From: a virus
Direction: 5' to 3' (one strand)
DNA length: 15,157 nucleotides
IMG/VR virus record: IMGVR_UViG_3300035698_020146
Coordinates: 1 to 15,157 of that record
This document shows positions 1,939 through 15,157 of the stretch, in pieces (position 1 is the first letter of the stretch; the number at the start of each line of letters is the position of its first letter). The position numbers and the translations under genes were made by a program. The notes under the pieces were generated by a model. It was given only the letters and a program-made list of their open reading frames with translations, was not told the DNA's origin and made no database searches.

Positions 1939-3306
1939 TTATCCGTCTACAGTGCCATATTTCTTAGTAATTACGGGGATTTTTGAACACGCGATAGCCA
2001 AGGCCATAAGAAAATCAGTTTCTAAATTTGAATCGGCGCGTTGATATGTGGTCATTTCGTCAGCCAATTCAGGAATAAATGGCGATGTTATCAAGCCGGA
2101 ATCGATAACGGCCTGCAAATGGTCAAGAATATAATCTTTTCTGCCACCGCGAAAATCGACCGGACTAGCAATATCCATACACATTTCCCAAAGCGTATCG
2201 CCGACGCCGGTACTGTCCATAAATACTTCTGAGTCACTTTCATAATGGGCTTGTCTAATTTCACTCTCGATTGAACTCCGGGCTTTTTTAGTTGGATTTG
2301 CTTTATTAAAATTTTCCCGACCCTTTTCTGTCCAGGGTAATTGAAACGCCCATTTTTTTGTAATTTGAAAAGGTACTTGCGATTTTTTGATTCTCAAGCC
2401 AACTGTCTGGTCTGAAATACTTCCACGCCGGCCCCGAGCAAGGTCCCAACCCTCGATATATTTTTGACCGGTTTCGATGCCGGCCTCGAGTTCCAAATTA
2501 TTATCAAATAATTTTTCGACACGCGAGGCGAACATCATTTCGGCCGTATCAATAAATTTACCTTTCACGACTTGATTGATTTTGCTGTCGCTCCAAGTTG
2601 AACATAAATAATCAAATAATTTATGATCAACAAAAGGATTTTCATAAGCAGAACCGCCCCGGACATATCCGCCCTTGCGCTTTATATCATTCTTGACACG
2701 ATAATAGGCATTTAATCCTTTTGGGGTAGCGTAAAAATCGAGTTGACTATCGCGCCATTTGCGAGTACGAGGCAATAGAATTTTTTCACGGATGAATTCG
2801 AGGTGACGCTCTAGCGCAATTTCGTCAGCGGAAATATAGCCGTATTCTTTTCCCTCGATGCTTTCACCTTTTCGCTTTGTAGTTTTATATTCAGTGACAG
2901 CGCCGTTAGTAAATCGCATCTGGGTAAATGGGTGCCGGACTATAGATTTTTCCAAATCGCAAAACCAAGGACCTAAAAGCGGACTGTCTTTTATCATGCC
3001 GGCCATTCGTTCTAGAACTAGCTCAGACAATTCCTGGGTAATCGCTACATTTAAGGTTTTGTATTTGGGGCCGTCTAAAAAATGTTGGAGTAAAAACCGC
3101 AGATGTTTTTTGGCAATAATATCAGTCTTGCCCCAACCGTTGCCAGGATGTAATAAATTTTCCCTTTTAACAGATTTTTCGAGCCATTCCTTTTGGCCTG
3201 GATGTGACTTGTAATCTAGAACTAAATCATCAAAAGCAGACCAGTCATTTTTTTCCTGGATGTTTTTAAGTGAAAAAGCGATTATGCGGAAAATCGAGTT
3301 TTGCAT
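1939..3306 (-). CDS. terL: Terminase large subunit
   Basis: 455 aa. Walker-A-like HPGNGWGKTD, Walker-B-like GYISADEIA, and a C-terminal nuclease-type acidic motif FMDSTGVGD. It lies upstream of the portal gene. Confidence 0.85.
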   Translation of the reverse strand: MQNSIFRIIAFSLKNIQEKNDWSAFDDLVLDYKSHPGQKEWLEKSVKRENLLHPGNGWGKTDIIAKKHLRFLLQHFLDGPKYKTLNVAITQELSELVLERMAGMIKDSPLLGPWFCDLEKSIVRHPFTQMRFTNGAVTEYKTTKRKGESIEGKEYGYISADEIALERHLEFIREKILLPRTRKWRDSQLDFYATPKGLNAYYRVKNDIKRKGGYVRGGSAYENPFVDHKLFDYLCSTWSDSKINQVVKGKFIDTAEMMFASRVEKLFDNNLELEAGIETGQKYIEGWDLARGRRGSISDQTVGLRIKKSQVPFQITKKWAFQLPWTEKGRENFNKANPTKKARSSIESEIRQAHYESDSEVFMDSTGVGDTLWEMCMDIASPVDFRGGRKDYILDHLQAVIDSGLITSPFIPELADEMTTYQRADSNLETDFLMALAIACSKIPVITKKYGTVDG

Positions 3307-3312
3307 TAGTAG

Positions 3313-3341
3313 ATAATAGCAAAACTTTCTACTTTAATCAA
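3313..3341 (-). promoter_or_regulatory. Candidate sigma70-type promoter TTGATT-17-TATTAT ending 6 nt before the TerL ATG (possible leaderless mRNA)
   Basis: Minus strand: ttgatt aaagtagaaagttttgc tattat ctacta ATG. The context is A+T-rich, so a chance match is possible. Confidence 0.35.
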
Positions 3342-3551
3342 ACATCACTAAAGTTCGACATTAACATCAAACATCAACATTTACATTAAAACTCTGACAT
3401 TAACACCAAACATCAACATTTACATTAAAACTCTGACATTAACATCAAACATCAACATTTAAGCTTTAAAAGAAAAAAGTGAGCAAACAAGCAAAGCTTT
3501 TCTTAAAACTATTATATTAACACCAAACATCAACATTTATATTAAAACGTT
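3333..3551. repeat. Tandem array with a 39-bp period (about five periods plus a degenerate upstream copy)
   Basis: Unit: gacattaacatcaaacatcaacatttacattaaaactct. It occurs at 3357..3395 and at 3396..3434 (one T/C difference). Period 3 starts at 3435 and matches for 27 nt. Its tail and most of period 4 (3462..3500) are replaced by an aagcttt...aaagctt hairpin of exactly one unit length. A unit-end remnant lies at 3501..3512. Period 5 (3513..3551) is diverged at its edges. Inside each unit ACAT(T/C)(A/T) recurs every 6-7 nt. Confidence 0.85.
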
Positions 3552-3871
3552 GAGAGTGCTCGCTCCGCTCGCAATTAAAGATAACAGACACGAACCTCCT
3601 CAAACCTCCAATATTTCCCTTGGTGTCTGGAGCAAGAAACGGTGGAATATAACCCTTACTGCTCTAACGTGGCATCGCATTACTGGACCGGAGCTTTCTC
3701 TCGGGCTACGCCCTCGACTTCCTAGCGCGCGTCTATATTCAAGTTGCCGGTCATTATTCATTCACAAGACTTAACAGTCAAACCCCTAGGAAGACCGCGA
3801 ACTTGCTCTTAAGAGCAAGATCGCTACAACTACAAAATTTCAAATATCAAGTAAAAAAAAGAAACGAAGTC

Positions 3872-3948
3872 GAGCAATTAAAACAAGCGATTTTATAATT
3901 ATATCGCTAAACCTCAATCAATCATAAAATCGCTTGTTTGAATTGCTC
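3872..3948. repeat. Inverted repeat or hairpin: 24-bp stem with one mismatch and a 29-nt loop
   Basis: gagcaattaaaacaagcgatttta (3872..3895) pairs with taaaatcgcttgtttgaattgctc (3925..3948). The single mismatch is A/G. Confidence 0.8.
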
Positions 3949-4155
3949 TCTAATATCTTACTTTAAAATGGAAGTCGCTCCGAGATTATTATAATTATTC
4001 ACATTTTTTTTATGACCGTCTACGCTCCGCTACGACCGTCACAAAAAAAACGCATCACAATTACAATAAATCTCTACGCTCCAATTAGAAAATTTTAAAG
4101 GTTGGCGCAAGCGCCCTCGACTAATTACTTTCGCTCCGCTCATAATAAAATGAGA

Positions 4156-4232
4156 GGAAAATAGAGAAGTACTAAAAACCCTTTTCCTAGTCGTGTTCGA
4201 CTAGCCGGGTTTTTAGTACTTCTCTATTTTCC
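4156..4232. repeat. Perfect 26-bp inverted repeat with a nested 7-bp hairpin
   Basis: ggaaaatagagaagtactaaaaaccc (4156..4181) is the exact reverse complement of gggtttttagtacttctctattttcc (4207..4232). The inner element ctagtcg-tgtt-cgactag is also perfect. Confidence 0.9.
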
Positions 4233-4283
4233 ATTTATCATTCCTTGCTACACAAAATAAAATTCGTGGGACGTGGCGCCGTA

Positions 4284-4425
4284 GATTGTTATCGCATAAC
4301 GTATATTTCACGAAGTAGGCATTTAGATATTACTAAACTTAAAGTTCTCAGCATCTCAGCAATACTTAATTTCAAAATAAAAATCCTCAGCAACTTCGCG
4401 AGAATATGCGTTATGCGAAACAATC
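4284..4425. repeat. Long imperfect inverted repeat (about 31 bp) enclosing 78 nt that carry three CTCAGCA copies
   Basis: 4284..4315 pairs with 4394..4425, including a perfect 10-bp core tcgcataacg/cgttatgcga. There are two single-base bulges, one T-G pair and one A-C pair. CTCAGCA occurs at 4347, 4355 and 4386. Confidence 0.75.
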
Positions 4426-4776
4426 CCAGAATAAAAACAGAAATCAATCGCCTATCGGGACAGTCAAACTGTCACCGTTACGCTCGGAAAATGTTCGAGA
4501 ATATAGCAACTTCACAGACCGAGCGTTTCCTCCGTGCTCCGCTTAACTGTCGAGGCGGGCACGGGACTTTTTTCGGGGCTTCGCCCCTCAGGGTTTGTGC
4601 ACGCATTTGTTGTGTAATGCCGTGCACCAAGCATTCACATACCAGTGTTAAAAATTCGAGGGCAAACAATATAATCATTTCATTGAGCCATTTGTACGCT
4701 CGTTTCACTCGCTACTATCGGGCGCTCCGCGCCCCTCGCTCGCTACGCTCGCGGGGCGCTCGTCTGGCTCGCGCCC

Positions 4777-4809
4777 AAAAAAAAACGTTGACTGGCATCA
4801 ACGTTTTTT
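4777..4809. terminator. Bidirectional intrinsic terminator
   Basis: aaaaaaaaacgttga-ctggca-tcaacgtttttt: an 8-bp G/C-containing stem extended by an A-run and a T-run, so a U-tract follows the hairpin on both strands. It lies 13 nt after the stop of the 180-aa minus-strand gene. Confidence 0.75.
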
Positions 4810-4821
4810 AAAATATTTAAT

Positions 4822-5364
4822 TTATAACAAAACGCCTTGTTGAATATCGAGTCCGTACTCGTTAGTGGCTCGTTGAAAAATTGCTTTTATATTATTCTCG
4901 TCTAACTGCTCGCCATTCATAATTTGGTAGCGCATTTTAGCAAGTTTTTCCAAATCTGAAACCTCTATCTTGTAAGTGTTAGATTTAAATTTCAATAAAA
5001 GTTGATCATAAGCGAGGTCCAATAATTCAACGGTTCTTTTCATATGCACGGCTTGGGATGTCACTTCTTCCAGTACATCATTTTTGATAATTTGGGTGGC
5101 AAGATTTGTCTTATAAGTAATAAACCCTTTGAAATGCCGGCATAAACTAGCCTCTGAAACTGACACGCCGAATTCATCTTTTGCGCGTTCGCAAATTCTG
5201 GCATAATGGGCGCCGTTTTTTCGCCAATCGTGGATTTCTTTCAAAATTCCTGATGAGCATATAGTACAGCGTGAGGAACAGATTTTTTTGAAATTAATCA
5301 ATTCATCGGGCATTACGGTCGTTCCGCAATTTTCCTTTTTTTCTTCGACTTCTTTATTTTCCAT
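4822..5364 (-). CDS. Hypothetical protein with a Cys-rich N-terminus, an HTH-like segment and a helical C-terminus; small-terminase candidate by position only
   Basis: 180-aa ORF with CSSRCTIC and further Cys/His residues, an HTH-like stretch GVSVSEASLCRHFKG, and a helical C-terminal half. It is the last gene before TerL apart from the 1.5-kb non-coding stretch. It has its own promoter and terminator. Confidence 0.5.
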   Translation of the reverse strand: MENKEVEEKKENCGTTVMPDELINFKKICSSRCTICSSGILKEIHDWRKNGAHYARICERAKDEFGVSVSEASLCRHFKGFITYKTNLATQIIKNDVLEEVTSQAVHMKRTVELLDLAYDQLLLKFKSNTYKIEVSDLEKLAKMRYQIMNGEQLDENNIKAIFQRATNEYGLDIQQGVLL

Positions 5365-5465
5365 TGCGATTTTTAAAGTTATCCACTCGCTTGATAGTAA
5401 GTGAATGTAAGTAAGGTAAGTTATTTATAGAGTTAGAACTTCCTTAGAGAGTTATAACTAACTTA

Positions 5466-5494
5466 AGAGTAACGTTTTTGAAAATTTTTGTCAA
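5466..5494 (-). promoter_or_regulatory. Candidate promoter TTGACA-17-TACTCT for the 180-aa gene
   Basis: Minus strand: ttgaca aaaattttcaaaaacgt tactct. The -35 is preceded, 4 nt upstream, by AGTGACTTATACACA (motif copy 2). The -10 is weak: only T1, A2 and T6 match. Confidence 0.45.
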
Positions 5495-5498
5495 GTGG

Positions 5499-5536
5499 TG
5501 TGTATAAGTCACTAGTTATCCCCATACTTATGCACA
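5499..5536. promoter_or_regulatory. DnaA-box cluster
   Basis: TTATACACA on the minus strand (5499..5507), TTATCCCCA on the plus strand (5516..5524, 8/9 match), and TTATGCACA on the plus strand (5528..5536). A further TTATCCACT (8/9) lies at 5379..5387. The reference consensus is TTATNCACA. Confidence 0.5.
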
Positions 5537-5573
5537 GCATCTTTCTACGAACAAACTCCGAACAAACATATAG

Positions 5574-5621
5574 TAAAAAAAAGTCCTCCCAATATATTAT
5601 AACATATAATCCGGAGGACTT
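5574..5621 (-). terminator. Intrinsic terminator closing the early gene block
   Basis: Minus strand: aagtcctcc-(23-nt loop)-ggaggactt followed by tttttttt. It lies 27 nt after the stop at 5648. The loop is large for a terminator. Confidence 0.55.
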
Positions 5622-5647
5622 GTCAACATAATTAATTAAATTTTAGT

Positions 5648-7497: not shown

Positions 7498-7788
7498 TTA
7501 GGCGTTTAGGGGTTCGACTTGTAGTATATAGAATAGATTGACCGTTCTTCGTCTTTTCGTTACGTCCCCGTGCTTGTCTTTCATTTCGATGAGCGTATAG
7601 GACTTTAGGGCTTTTTCCCCTTTCTTGACTTTAAATCCGTCCTGAATCCACTGTTTGAACGTCTTGCAGTTTAGTTGTGGATTATAGTTTTTAGCCTCAG
7701 CCTCTCCATAGCGCTCTACTATTTGGGCGCCGACGCACTCTGCTGTGGACTTACTTCCGCGGTACATTGTAGTGGTTAATTTTGGCAT
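7498..7788 (-). CDS. ArdC-N-like (DUF1738-like) ssDNA-binding domain protein
   Basis: 96 aa. CKTFKQWIQDGFKVKKGEKALKSY matches the remembered ArdC N-domain core (W-l-T-f-k-Q...G-g-q-V-r-K-G-E-K-g). The protein is shorter than a full ArdC N-domain. Confidence 0.55.
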   Translation of the reverse strand: MPKLTTTMYRGSKSTAECVGAQIVERYGEAEAKNYNPQLNCKTFKQWIQDGFKVKKGEKALKSYTLIEMKDKHGDVTKRRRTVNLFYILQVEPLNA

Positions 7789-7828: not shown

Positions 7829-7871
7829 AGTATAGCATAGCGGTGACCGATGTCAATGTGGATAAGTCACT
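7829..7871 (-). promoter_or_regulatory. Promoter TTGACA-16-TATACT abutted upstream by AGTGACTTATCCACA (motif copy 3, perfect DnaA box)
   Basis: Minus strand: agtgacttatccaca ttgaca tcggtcaccgctatgc tatact. It lies about 35 nt upstream of the ATG at 7788. The leader contains a ggagg-ggataa-cctcc hairpin. Confidence 0.6.
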
Positions 7872-7887
7872 GATAGATTTTACCATA

Positions 7888-8113: not shown

Positions 8114-8141
8114 ATTGTTGACTATCCGGATAGTCAACAAT
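8114..8141. promoter_or_regulatory. 28-bp perfect palindrome (operator or leader hairpin)
   Basis: attgttgactatcc|ggatagtcaacaat. It lies between the promoter at 8162..8190 and the ATG at 8103. It shares the GACTAT core with the direct repeats at 8170..8182 and 8204..8216. Confidence 0.7.
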
Positions 8142-8161
8142 CGATTAATAGTTATAATCTA

Positions 8162-8190
8162 ATTATACAGTAGACTATGGCCATTGTCAA
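8162..8190 (-). promoter_or_regulatory. Perfect-consensus sigma70 promoter TTGACA-17-TATAAT (early promoter)
   Basis: Minus strand: ttgaca atggccatagtctactg tataat. The -35 is at 8190..8185 and the -10 at 8167..8162. It lies directly after the late-operon terminator and before the early genes. Confidence 0.75.
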
Positions 8191-8224
8191 CATTGTTTAA
8201 TATGTAGACTATTGCCAGGCAAAA

Positions 8225-8261
8225 CAAAAAACCCGGGCCGTATGACAAACCCGAGTTTTTT
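8225..8261 (-). terminator. Intrinsic terminator closing the late/lysis operon
   Basis: Minus-strand RNA: cucggg-(12-nt loop)-cccggg with one G-U pair, which would be a C-A mismatch on the plus strand. It is followed by uuuuuuguuuug and has an A-run upstream. Confidence 0.65.
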
Positions 8262-12282: not shown

Positions 12283-12645
12283 CTAATCTTTTTGTTTTTC
12301 TCTTGGATGCGGAGCTTTACCGTCAAAAACAATTAGCGCCGGGTCTTCACTCATAACAGCAATGACAGCTTTGTCTTTTGTAAAATGGTGATTACGCCCC
12401 TCGATATAAATCTTTTTTCTTCCAACACATACCGAATGGATTCCGTGACGTAAATCTTTACGAATAAAATCAACACCTTTGGCATCAGCTTTTGCCTTAG
12501 CTTGTGCCTCAGCATCTGCTTTAGCCTCAGCATCAGCCTCAGCCTTGACTCTTGCCTCTTCTTTGGCTAGTGCCTCAGCATCTGCTTTAGCTTTTTTAGC
12601 CTCGGCATCAGCTAACGCTTTGGCTTGTGGATTTTGTTGTGACAT
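12283..12645 (-). CDS. Hypothetical protein with an N-terminal Ala/Lys/Glu/Asp low-complexity repeat
   Basis: 120 aa. Residues 8-56 read AKALADAEAKKAKADAEALAKEEARVKAEADAEAKADAEAQAKAKADAK, followed by a globular-looking C-terminal half. A 7-bp hairpin (12254..12270) follows the gene. Confidence 0.6.
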   Translation of the reverse strand: MSQQNPQAKALADAEAKKAKADAEALAKEEARVKAEADAEAKADAEAQAKAKADAKGVDFIRKDLRHGIHSVCVGRKKIYIEGRNHHFTKDKAVIAVMSEDPALIVFDGKAPHPREKQKD

Positions 12646-14746: not shown

Positions 14747-15157
14747 TTAGTCTTTAGAAAGACTTTGTTTTTGTCGCCCAAGACCCAGGACGTCGACAGC
14801 GGATTCTTCACCGCCTTTTTCGCCGTCACCTTTGACTTCCTCGATTGCCTCGTCTATATCTGCCTCGCTAGAATAATCTGGTGGGGCAAATTGTTGACTA
14901 TCACCGTAAAGTTTTTTATTAACTTCGCGCTGTCTGTCAACTATTCCCTGAACTTCTTCCGGTTTTTTACCTATTAATAATTCCGGCAAAATATCAGGAA
15001 ATTTTTCGGCAAGCGTTTTGGTTTCTTGAACTGCGGACATATCCGATATACTTTTTTCAAGAGCTTTGACTGTTTCAGTCATTTTTACGAGGGCCTTATC
15101 AGAATCAGACAACTTATCGTCTTTGTCTTTTTGGGCTTTCTCGACTGCTTCTTGAAG
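14747..15157 (-). CDS. Scaffolding-like protein, C-terminal part (frame open to the window edge; the same gene as 1..316)
   Basis: The frame stays open from 15112 to 15157 (45 nt, 15 codons). The track start at 15112 is an internal TTG. The stop at 14747 lies 5 nt before the capsid ATG. Confidence 0.6.
   Translation of the reverse strand, partial: LQEAVEKAQKDKDDKLSDSDKALVKMTETVKALEKSISDMSAVQETKTLAEKFPDILPELLIGKKPEEVQGIVDRQREVNKKLYGDSQQFAPPDYSSEADIDEAIEEVKGDGEKGGEESAVDVLGLGRQKQSLSKD
15031..15157. repeat. Second copy of the 127-nt terminal overlap (same sequence as 1..127)
   Basis: Identical to 1..127. Confidence 0.95.

Follow-up and report, generated by a model that had tools for sequence, protein, structure and literature searches.

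Organization of the locus

The window analyzed here is the whole stretch of 15,157 nucleotides of the IMG/VR virus record IMGVR_UViG_3300035698_020146, in which all credible genes are carried by the minus strand. Between the gene of the large terminase TerL (1939-3306, minus strand; weak Pfam match to Terminase_6N) and that of UP180, a 180-amino acid (aa) protein encoded directly upstream (4822-5364, minus strand), a gap of 1,515 bases is found (3307-4821), which amounts to 10.1% of the 15,030-base genome. On comparative evidence, this gap is a conserved, previously undescribed structured element, which is present family-wide and represents a modular, variable array of local hairpins. Two of them, here termed element A (4284-4425) and element H (4147-4237), show strong compensatory variation among related phages.

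The assembly is of the circular type (positions 1-127 equal 15031-15157, leaving 15,030 unique bases), and this 127-nt end overlap is consistent with the assembly overlap of a circular or circularly permuted genome. Besides TerL and UP180, the minus strand encodes the portal (335-1720), an M23/LysM lysin, an SU10-type adaptor and the major capsid protein. Among the window genes no polymerase, primase, helicase, Rep protein or integrase was recognized, a scan of the window for tRNA and tmRNA genes returned none, and no clear Shine-Dalgarno sequence is present before any of the 25 phage genes.

UP180 displays the invariant residues Cys29, Cys33, Cys36 and His45, a helix-turn-helix-like segment and a helix of around 57 residues, and it is linked to the gap and TerL in all relatives. 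Searches by Pfam, PHROGs, PDB sequences and Foldseek revealed nothing significant about its identity. Weak hints toward a small terminase (TerS) are a Foldseek probability of 0.12 for the TerS of P74-26/G20c and a match to the Pfam family Phage_Mu_Gp27 at E 0.03 in 2 of 27 UP180 homologues. Judged from its position, UP180 is possibly the small terminase or a late regulator.

Relatives and probable host

Searches with TerL and UP180 yielded around 80 loci from IMG/VR, metagenomes, metagenome-assembled genomes (MAGs) and read-archive assemblies, around 57 of which are non-redundant. In every one of these that extends far enough, the order UP180, gap without open reading frames (ORFs), TerL is kept. 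The gap itself measures 428 to around 1,690 nt, and the number, order and total length of the hairpins differ among the relatives. In the loci L034 and L077 the portal-capsid block is inverted and the UP180-gap-TerL block is intact. The lineage to which they belong, together with L036, has the portal-capsid genes on the opposite strand, upstream of UP180, with UP180, gap and TerL as one block. The gap region also tolerates the insertion of a gene, as seen in L017 (1754-2182) and L018 (3246-3686), where a conserved gene of 142-146 aa is located between the hairpin region and TerL.

Over 2.2 kb, the window has eight counterparts of 100% identity (L052-L059), contigs that originate from different samples and sources (JGI, ENA, Logan). 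They therefore contain no information on microdiversity, and the phage population is remarkably clonal. Toward the relatives, blastn of the gap detected short patches only. That the DNA of the gap is barely alignable between relatives is to be expected, because the 4-fold synonymous sites of TerL are already saturated (identity of 0.32-0.37 between the window and L015/L069). For two closer locus pairs, the identity of the gap and of the 4-fold sites was 0.84 vs. 0.59 and 0.79 vs. 0.63, respectively. No match was obtained by blastn of the gap against GenBank phages, and the literature provided no description of this phage family or of the elements A and H.

Eleven TerL relatives (L072-L082) are present in MAG bins, eight of which are labelled Moranbacteria/Moraniibacteriota, Parcubacteria or Patescibacteria. 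Here, the label Candidatus Moranbacteria/Moraniibacteriota applies to six relatives from four MAGs; the remaining relatives carry the labels Gammaproteobacteria (n = 1) and "uncultured bacterium" (n = 2). The 65.9-kb contig JAAXXZ010000003.1 has one Moraniibacteriota relative at its end. A host within the Candidate Phyla Radiation (Patescibacteria) is probable, and the phages of this group are almost unstudied. Another contig, WBZQ01000313.1 (41.6 kb), holds two different family members (L029 and L036) in opposite orientation, which could be tandem prophages or an assembly chimera.

The sequence-only reading had described the gap as free of ORFs, and the relatives bear this out. No ORF of the gap is conserved in homologous phages: tblastx found no relative at E ≤ 1e-4, and tblastn against the relatives at E ≤ 1 returned only short matches at chance level or matches of stem DNA. 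The gap would code for a protein if the plus-strand ORF 4245-4811 (181-188 aa) or other small ORFs were real, and this ORF is indeed reported by gene callers, its 181-aa form being called antisense to the genes in all eight contigs identical to the window. However, it has no homologue in relatives whose flanking genes share 55-82% identity, its product is rich in Arg, Leu, Ile and Ser, it starts with TTG and it crosses the covarying helices. A coding function of the gap is therefore rejected.

Elements A and H

Element A (4284-4425, minus strand) forms an irregular helix of 31 bp, in which the arm UUCGCAUAACGCAYAUU...CGAAGU pairs with ACUUCG...AAURU-CGUUAUGCGA, and which holds an invariant unpaired C. 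It occurs in 13 distinct relatives. The arm sequence is conserved, and it stays so despite the saturated 4-fold sites of TerL between the window and L015/L069. The interior of A ranges from 210 nt down to a loop of 13 nt, the latter in L069, the closest relative; by this comparison the interior is dispensable. Among the 13 sequences, 91.3% of the cells are paired and 19 of the 31 pairs have changed on both sides, which is reached by 0 of 500 shuffles, and slid controls are paired to 31-44%. An exact-pattern search of IMG/VR with the 5' arm of A resulted in 17 matches, none of them with the 3' arm, which identifies all of them as chance matches.

Element H (4147-4237, minus strand) contains a perfect A/U-rich stem of 25-26 bp (26 bp in the window, 4156-4232), followed by an asymmetric internal loop with 2-3 nt on the 5' side and 5-6 purines on the 3' side, an apical hairpin of 6-7 bp and a U-rich tail. 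Such tails are also found on several later hairpins. Among nine sequences, 91.8% of H is paired and compensatory changes are seen in 27 of 31 pairs, a level that none of 500 shuffles attained. A covariance model, R1, was built for H and detects one strong sense-strand H per close relative with 57-98 bits, also in relatives outside the training set (L063 90.8 bits, L067 82.5 bits, L060 57 bits). Nearly all matches of R1 are located in the gap. The distance from A to H is 46-58 nt in ten relatives; in the window this spacer comprises 4238-4283 (minus strand), and it is conserved in length, not in sequence. Distant relatives have hairpins of H-like architecture with unrelated sequence, and in the L007/L074 lineage the loop is conserved and the stems are altered by compensatory substitutions. 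In L002, an H-like, A/U-rich long hairpin is present where the terminator of the late operon is expected, which suggests that H-like hairpins can act as terminators in these phages. ACUCCUU tails were also considered as mimics of anti-Shine-Dalgarno sequences, but this was dropped, as they pair with AAGG at the foot of their own hairpin.

Between moderately diverged locus pairs, the pair is kept in 25 of 26 double changes in stems. A covariation test on homologous contigs had been proposed in the sequence-only reading, and its outcome is strong compensatory variation for both 4284-4425 and 4156-4232. With significant covariation in the proposed helices, as it characterizes structured RNA motifs, A and H are judged to be under selection for pairing.

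For A, also a folded attachment site can be considered, in which two inverted dif-like XerC/D sites would be paired as in the single-stranded attP of CTXphi, allowing a phage without an integrase to integrate. The arm TTTCGCATAA-CGCACA-TTCTTCCGAAGT resembles the dif site of Escherichia coli, GGTGCGCATAA-TGTATA-TTATGTTAAAT, and the obligatory mismatch of A lies within the "central region" of this comparison. An integrase gene was not found in the window, and one relative is located on the 65.9-kb Moraniibacteriota contig. Nevertheless, only the less conserved XerC half (CGCATAA plus the YGYAYA center) shows this resemblance, UP180, gap and TerL are contiguous in the 65.9-kb contig as well as in the two-phage contig with no integration through the gap seen, and a tailed double-stranded DNA phage has no obvious single-stranded stage. 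This makes an attachment site extremely improbable.

Strand of the fold

Several independent asymmetries favor the gene-sense (minus) strand as the folded strand, although not decisively. G·U pairs outnumber A·C mismatches by 13:5 in A, by 11:3 in H and by 14:3 in the other hairpins, and for single changes between related pairs the ratio is 17:7. Since the two arms of a helix are complementary, base composition alone cannot bias this ratio. Furthermore, in 9 of 10 relatives the sense strand gives the more stable fold of H, the GAGCG-type repeats described below are oriented with the sense strand, and the 5' arms of 60 hairpins are purine-rich in 37 cases and purine-poor in 7. A symmetric role as duplex DNA, either as a cruciform or as a palindromic protein site, is disfavored. 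RNA transcribed from the gap in the sense of the genes appears to be the simplest reading of the fold, and folded single-stranded DNA is a less simple alternative.

An antisense RNA would reverse this assignment. Here, a non-coding plus-strand RNA of around 540 nt would start at 4235-4263, traverse A together with the G+C-rich hairpins and terminate at the hairpin 4777-4809. A promoter-like TTATCA-17-TAAAAT is present on the plus strand at 4235-4263 and another at 4648-4675, the hairpin 4777-4809 has a T run on the plus strand too, and the span coincides with the ORF reported by the gene callers. A is as stable or more stable on the plus strand in 6 of 11 relatives, but its G·U to A·C ratio of 13:5 favors the minus strand, and both the orientation of the (N)AGCG motif and the purine bias go with the sense strand. 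With a score of 9/12, the promoter-like site is not strong, and it was not found conserved in the A-H spacers of the relatives, and H and the hairpins downstream of it would be left unexplained. An antisense RNA of this kind is accordingly regarded as improbable.

Hairpin inventory and folding statistics

Every hairpin listed in the sequence-only reading was recovered at its position. In a sliding-window fold scan, the gap has a mean z of -2.3 on the plus and -2.6 on the minus strand, compared to -0.3 and -0.5, respectively, for the rest of the genome, and this signal originates mainly from four long hairpins. In the 57 non-redundant relatives, stems with a length of 16 bp or more and no more than one mismatch amount to 1.0 per kb in the gaps vs. 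0.03 per kb in the rest of the loci, an enrichment of around 30-fold.

Seen from UP180, the first feature is a hairpin at 4777-4809 with a 12-bp stem, a 6-nt loop and flanking A and T runs on both strands. It had been called a bidirectional terminator; the hairpin and the flanking runs are indeed present, but a consensus terminator scan did not flag it. From its sequence it is read as a terminator-like hairpin, which would end the early operon. It is followed by G+C-rich nested hairpins (4700-4776, minus strand) with a cluster of sense-strand (N)AGCG pentamer repeats, where copies of AGCG(N)AGCG or GCGGAGC begin at 4749, 4744 and 4730, and by five short G+C-rich hairpins (4597-4627, 4575-4587, 4532-4564, 4480-4526 and 4459-4473; together 4459-4627, minus strand). 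Comparable G+C-rich nested hairpins precede element A in the relatives and are not alignable with the 4459-4627 set of the window.

Immediately after H, a single sense-strand copy of the motif AGCGGAGCGAA is located (4130-4140, minus strand), and then a hairpin closed by U8/A8, the loop of which presents GUAGCGGAGCGUAG (4004-4050, minus strand). The long hairpin 3872-3948 (minus strand), with 29-nt arms of 93% complementarity and a fold z of -9.4, is part of the variable hairpin array after H. Further toward TerL are the small hairpin cttgctc-ttaa-gagcaag (3802-3819) and a G+C-richer segment (3550-3775, minus strand) with the terminal motif GAGCGGAGCGAG at around 3559-3571. The center of this segment (around 3600-3750) shows no excess structure, and windows overlapping its ends are weakly to moderately negative, with z down to around -3 on one strand.

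The sequence-only reading had compared the gap to the large ornate RNAs of the GOLLD/ROOL class and had suggested a scan for known large RNAs. No Rfam family matches in the window: cmscan at E ≤ 1, run over both strands of the entire window, gave only sub-threshold matches to miRNA hairpins, and in 13 relatives no family reaches the gathering score. GOLLD and ROOL are likewise large non-coding RNAs of phages and prophages, found by helix density and covariation. In contrast to them, the stems of the gap are long and nearly perfect Watson-Crick helices, and a conserved multi-junction core is absent; instead of a single multi-domain architecture of more than 500 nt, independent local hairpins are seen. 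The long-range pair ccctcga/tcgaggg proposed earlier is at chance level (115 complementary 7-mer pairs in the gap vs. 86.5 ± 14.4 after shuffling), and apart from helix A no conserved long-range pairing was found in the gap. A single giant RNA extending over most of the gap would fit its size, helix density and phage setting as well as the two covarying helices. However, it would have to accommodate modules that vary in number, order and total length (around 4-fold), an element A whose interior is reduced to a 13-nt loop in the closest relative, the lack of conserved junctions, and a real gene of 142-146 aa inserted into the region in L017 and L018. Already disfavored on these grounds, it is considered very improbable.

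Repeats and arrays in front of TerL

GAGCG-type pentamers (AGCG-N-AGCG, GCGGAGC) occur almost exclusively on the gene-sense strand. In the gaps, GAGCG is present 211 times on the sense strand vs. 26 times on the antisense strand, and GAGCGA 65 times vs. once. The (N)AGCG repeats are oriented and clustered, with 5 nt as the predominant distance (66 of the close spacings), and are often located in hairpin loops. Their density rises toward TerL, with 4.4 AGCG per kb within 200 nt of the gene vs. 0.7-0.9 per kb beyond 400 nt. Some lineages carry other short repeats, namely CGCCTCG, GAGGAAGG and AACTCGTTC. A role of GCGGAGC as a sponge for CsrA was considered and dropped, as many copies read AGCGUAGCG or AGCGAAGCG, which lack GGA.

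Beside TerL, the 39-nt tandem array noticed earlier was confirmed at 3357-3548. Its unit has an AATGTT-type core and is present in 2.7 near-perfect or 4.9 looser copies. In the close clade, arrays with a period of 30-39 nt are located 30-170 nt upstream of TerL; their copies are near-identical within one array, and the sequences are unrelated between relatives.

A position next to the terminase together with repeated recognition motifs, as displayed by the gap, is typical for pac and cos regions. The NAG repeats bound by TRAP, the R sites of lambda cosB and the pac hexamers of P1 are all recognized by oligomeric proteins, and they resemble the repeats of the gap in being short, oriented and clustered. 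In contrast to these, the sequence of the (N)AGCG repeats differs by lineage and their binder is putative. The main rival explanation is based on this likeness: UP180 would be a small terminase that binds the repeats and arrays as DNA, and A and H would be extruded or transiently single-stranded DNA marking the first cut of TerL. The UP180-gap-TerL unit survives genome rearrangement, the repeats near TerL are oriented and lineage-variable like the lambda and P1 sites, UP180 shows the weak small-terminase hints described above, and the stems are nearly perfect Watson-Crick helices, all of which would fit a pac region. On the contrary, the excess of G·U over A·C and the sense-strand stability of H point to folding of one strand and not to a symmetric cruciform, known pac and cos sites do without 0.4-1.7 kb or several hairpins of 25 bp, and UP180 has no significant match to any terminase family. 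A pac region is thus a minor but serious possibility, unlikely on balance.

Transcription map and probable replication origin

The candidate late promoter proposed beside TerL is supported. In the window it reads TTGATT-17 nt-TG-extended TATTAT (3313-3341, minus strand) and ends 6 nt before the ATG of TerL (3306), and in most relatives a -10-like hexamer recurs within around 6-9 nt of this ATG, the commonest spacing being exactly 6 nt (12 loci). With a -10 element at this distance, TerL would be expressed from its own promoter, and its mRNA appears to be leaderless or nearly so. The hairpins would therefore not represent a 5' leader of TerL.

The early promoter has the perfect consensus TTGACA-17-TATAAT (8190-8162, minus strand) and is preceded by the canonical terminator of the late operon (around 8256-8226, minus strand). 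A perfect palindrome of 26-28 bp, ATTGTTGACTATCC/GGATAGTCAACAAT (8141-8114), is present after this promoter, just before the first early gene. The region 8114-8260 looks like an early promoter with its operator. Taken together with the terminator-like hairpin after UP180, this map of early and late promoters would make the gap a spacer that separates the late promoter from the end of the early operon.

DnaA-box-like 9-mers are present 13 times in the window, compared to an expectation of 4.2 ± 1.9. They cluster in a 283-nt region upstream of UP180 (5365-5647, boxes at 5379, 5499, 5516 and 5528). Across the relatives, their density is 3.4 per kb upstream of UP180, 0.47 in the gap, i.e., at background, and 0.44 elsewhere, and they recur at offsets of around -170, -137 and -18. 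The region 5365-5647 is probably a replication origin or a promoter under the control of DnaA. The 18-mer TGTGGATAAGTCACTNAT, which includes a perfect minus-strand DnaA box, has three copies (1897-1914, 5499-5516 and 7857-7874), and two of these are located at the 5' ends of small ORFs or close to them.

An origin in the gap, which the sequence-only reading had listed as an alternative, becomes less likely by this clustering in another intergenic region. The gap could still act in replication, either as an iteron origin or through single-strand initiation (priming) hairpins on the lagging-strand template. The tandem array is A+T-rich and iteron-like, no replication protein was recognized in the genome, and a fork arriving from the DnaA-box region would use the sense strand as its lagging-strand template. 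Strand-specific hairpins are also known from the single-strand initiation signals ssi and sso, where the CS-6 element of ssoA is TAGCGT. However, the background density of DnaA-box-like sites in the gap does not fit an iteron/DnaA-type origin, and arrays that are wholly different between close relatives fit poorly to an origin that uses host factors only. The probability of a replication element is consequently low, comparable to that of the antisense RNA.

A proposed early/late boundary module

The reading that we tentatively prefer, at a probability slightly below even, is that the gap represents an early/late boundary module of podovirus-like phages of around 15 kb, probably of Patescibacteria, which combines RNA hairpins of the sense strand with protein-binding repeats at the DNA level. 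Here, the early operon would end with UP180 and the late/packaging operon would open with the leaderless mRNA of TerL, with the gap in between. A first layer would consist of independently folding hairpins of the gene-sense strand, which would act in single-stranded form. Most likely they would do so as RNA, with transcription either continuing beyond the UP180 stop or beginning at weak internal promoters. Its conserved core would be element A and, at a fixed distance, H, followed by the variable hairpins. With its conserved helix and its obligatory unpaired C, A may serve as a recognition platform for a protein, and H may be a terminator-like hairpin that forms 3' ends and is also a candidate substrate of RNase III. 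Together, the hairpins would stop and stabilize the early transcripts and insulate the late promoter. The second layer would comprise the tandem arrays and (N)AGCG repeats by the TerL promoter as DNA sites for a regulator or the terminase, and UP180 would be the obvious candidate to bind them.

Several observations weigh against this boundary module. The free energy of A is strand-neutral (sense favored in 5 of 11), and the G·U excess may partly reflect a strand-biased C-to-T mutation, which fits the skew of G > C and T > A. Wobble pairs make up only around 1-4% in the long stems, which is unusual for selection on RNA only; this scarcity would also fit folded DNA or a "perfecting" of palindromes by template switching. 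Part of the covariation of A could be mimicked by two inverted copies of one protein-binding site. Within the window, A/H are separated from the early operon by the canonical-looking terminator 4777-4809, and a promoter scan revealed no convincing sense-strand promoter upstream of A. Hairpins with a T run resembling terminators show no strand bias in the gaps (30 sense vs. 26 antisense), and the lineage-specific short repeats resemble sites that co-evolve with a DNA-binding protein.

A bolder proposal is that the A-H pair is a nucleic-acid cofactor, either RNA or a folded single strand, of packaging in Patescibacteria phages, which would be recognized by the zinc-finger protein UP180 and would couple the switch to late transcription to the start of the terminase. 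We consider this rather unlikely, somewhat more so than the pac region. If true, it would represent an RNA-dependent step in packaging of the terminase type and not of the phi29 type.

This family spends 3-11% of a genome of 13-15 kb on a non-coding module at a fixed place. Since the module is kept at one place despite the turnover of its sequence, something important is likely to depend on the folds. If it acts as RNA, the regulatory or processing RNAs of phages would gain a new class, from a lineage of minimal protein-coding capacity; if it acts as DNA, it would be an unusually elaborate packaging site. For further studies, the covariation-supported motifs A and H, the model R1 of H, a transcription map and a likely DnaA-dependent origin are now available.

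Comparison to known systems

The RNase III hairpins of T7 (R0.3, R1.1 and others) are intergenic stems of around 20-30 bp, which contain an asymmetric internal loop and carry a stem-loop in their upper part. They are located at the boundaries of transcription units and are conserved more in structure than in sequence. H shares the intergenic position, the asymmetric internal loop, the upper stem-loop and the placement at a putative transcription-unit boundary. It differs in its lower stem, a perfect A/U duplex of 25 bp, and in its conserved apical module, and it is a candidate substrate of RNase III.

The packaging RNA (pRNA) of phi29 (RF00044) is an RNA of a small podovirus, tied to the packaging ATPase, which keeps its structure while its sequence varies. 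As in A, a long helix formed by the two ends encloses a central domain. A phi29-type pRNA would be expected to match RF00044 and to require its central domain with the interlocking loops; here, no Rfam match was found and the interior of A appears dispensable. Furthermore, in contrast to phi29, a TerS-like gene is present in these phages and their genomes assemble as circles, which suggests packaging from concatemers and not of protein-primed unit genomes.

The intergenic region of the Ff phages (M13/f1) is free of ORFs, comprises around 0.5 kb or around 8% of the genome and contains strand-specific hairpins for packaging and priming. With this region and with the single-strand initiation signals of plasmids, the gap has in common that several long, strand-specific hairpins are located in one ORF-free stretch. 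The Ff genome, however, is single-stranded DNA, whereas TerL, the portal and the HK97-type capsid module found here indicate packaging of double-stranded DNA.

The closest published precedent are unnamed candidate structured RNAs upstream of large-terminase genes, which were obtained by comparative genomics of IMG/VR and have an unknown function (PMC10690425). Like A and H, these candidates derive from uncultivated phage contigs and lie just upstream of TerL. A and H, however, are located upstream of the TerL promoter and not in a TerL leader, as the TerL mRNA appears to be leaderless.

Further observations in the window

Two other genes of the window contain features worth mentioning. A protein of 96 aa (7498-7788) matches weakly to the N-terminal single-stranded-DNA-binding domain of ArdC (Pfam E 2.3e-5) and is, besides UP180, the only hint of a nucleic-acid-binding early protein. 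Within the gene of a 120-aa protein adjoining the adaptor gene, imperfect tandem repeats of 12, 18 and 30 nt (GCCTCAGCATCA-like) are present at 12476-12645, which probably encode a low-complexity repeat protein.

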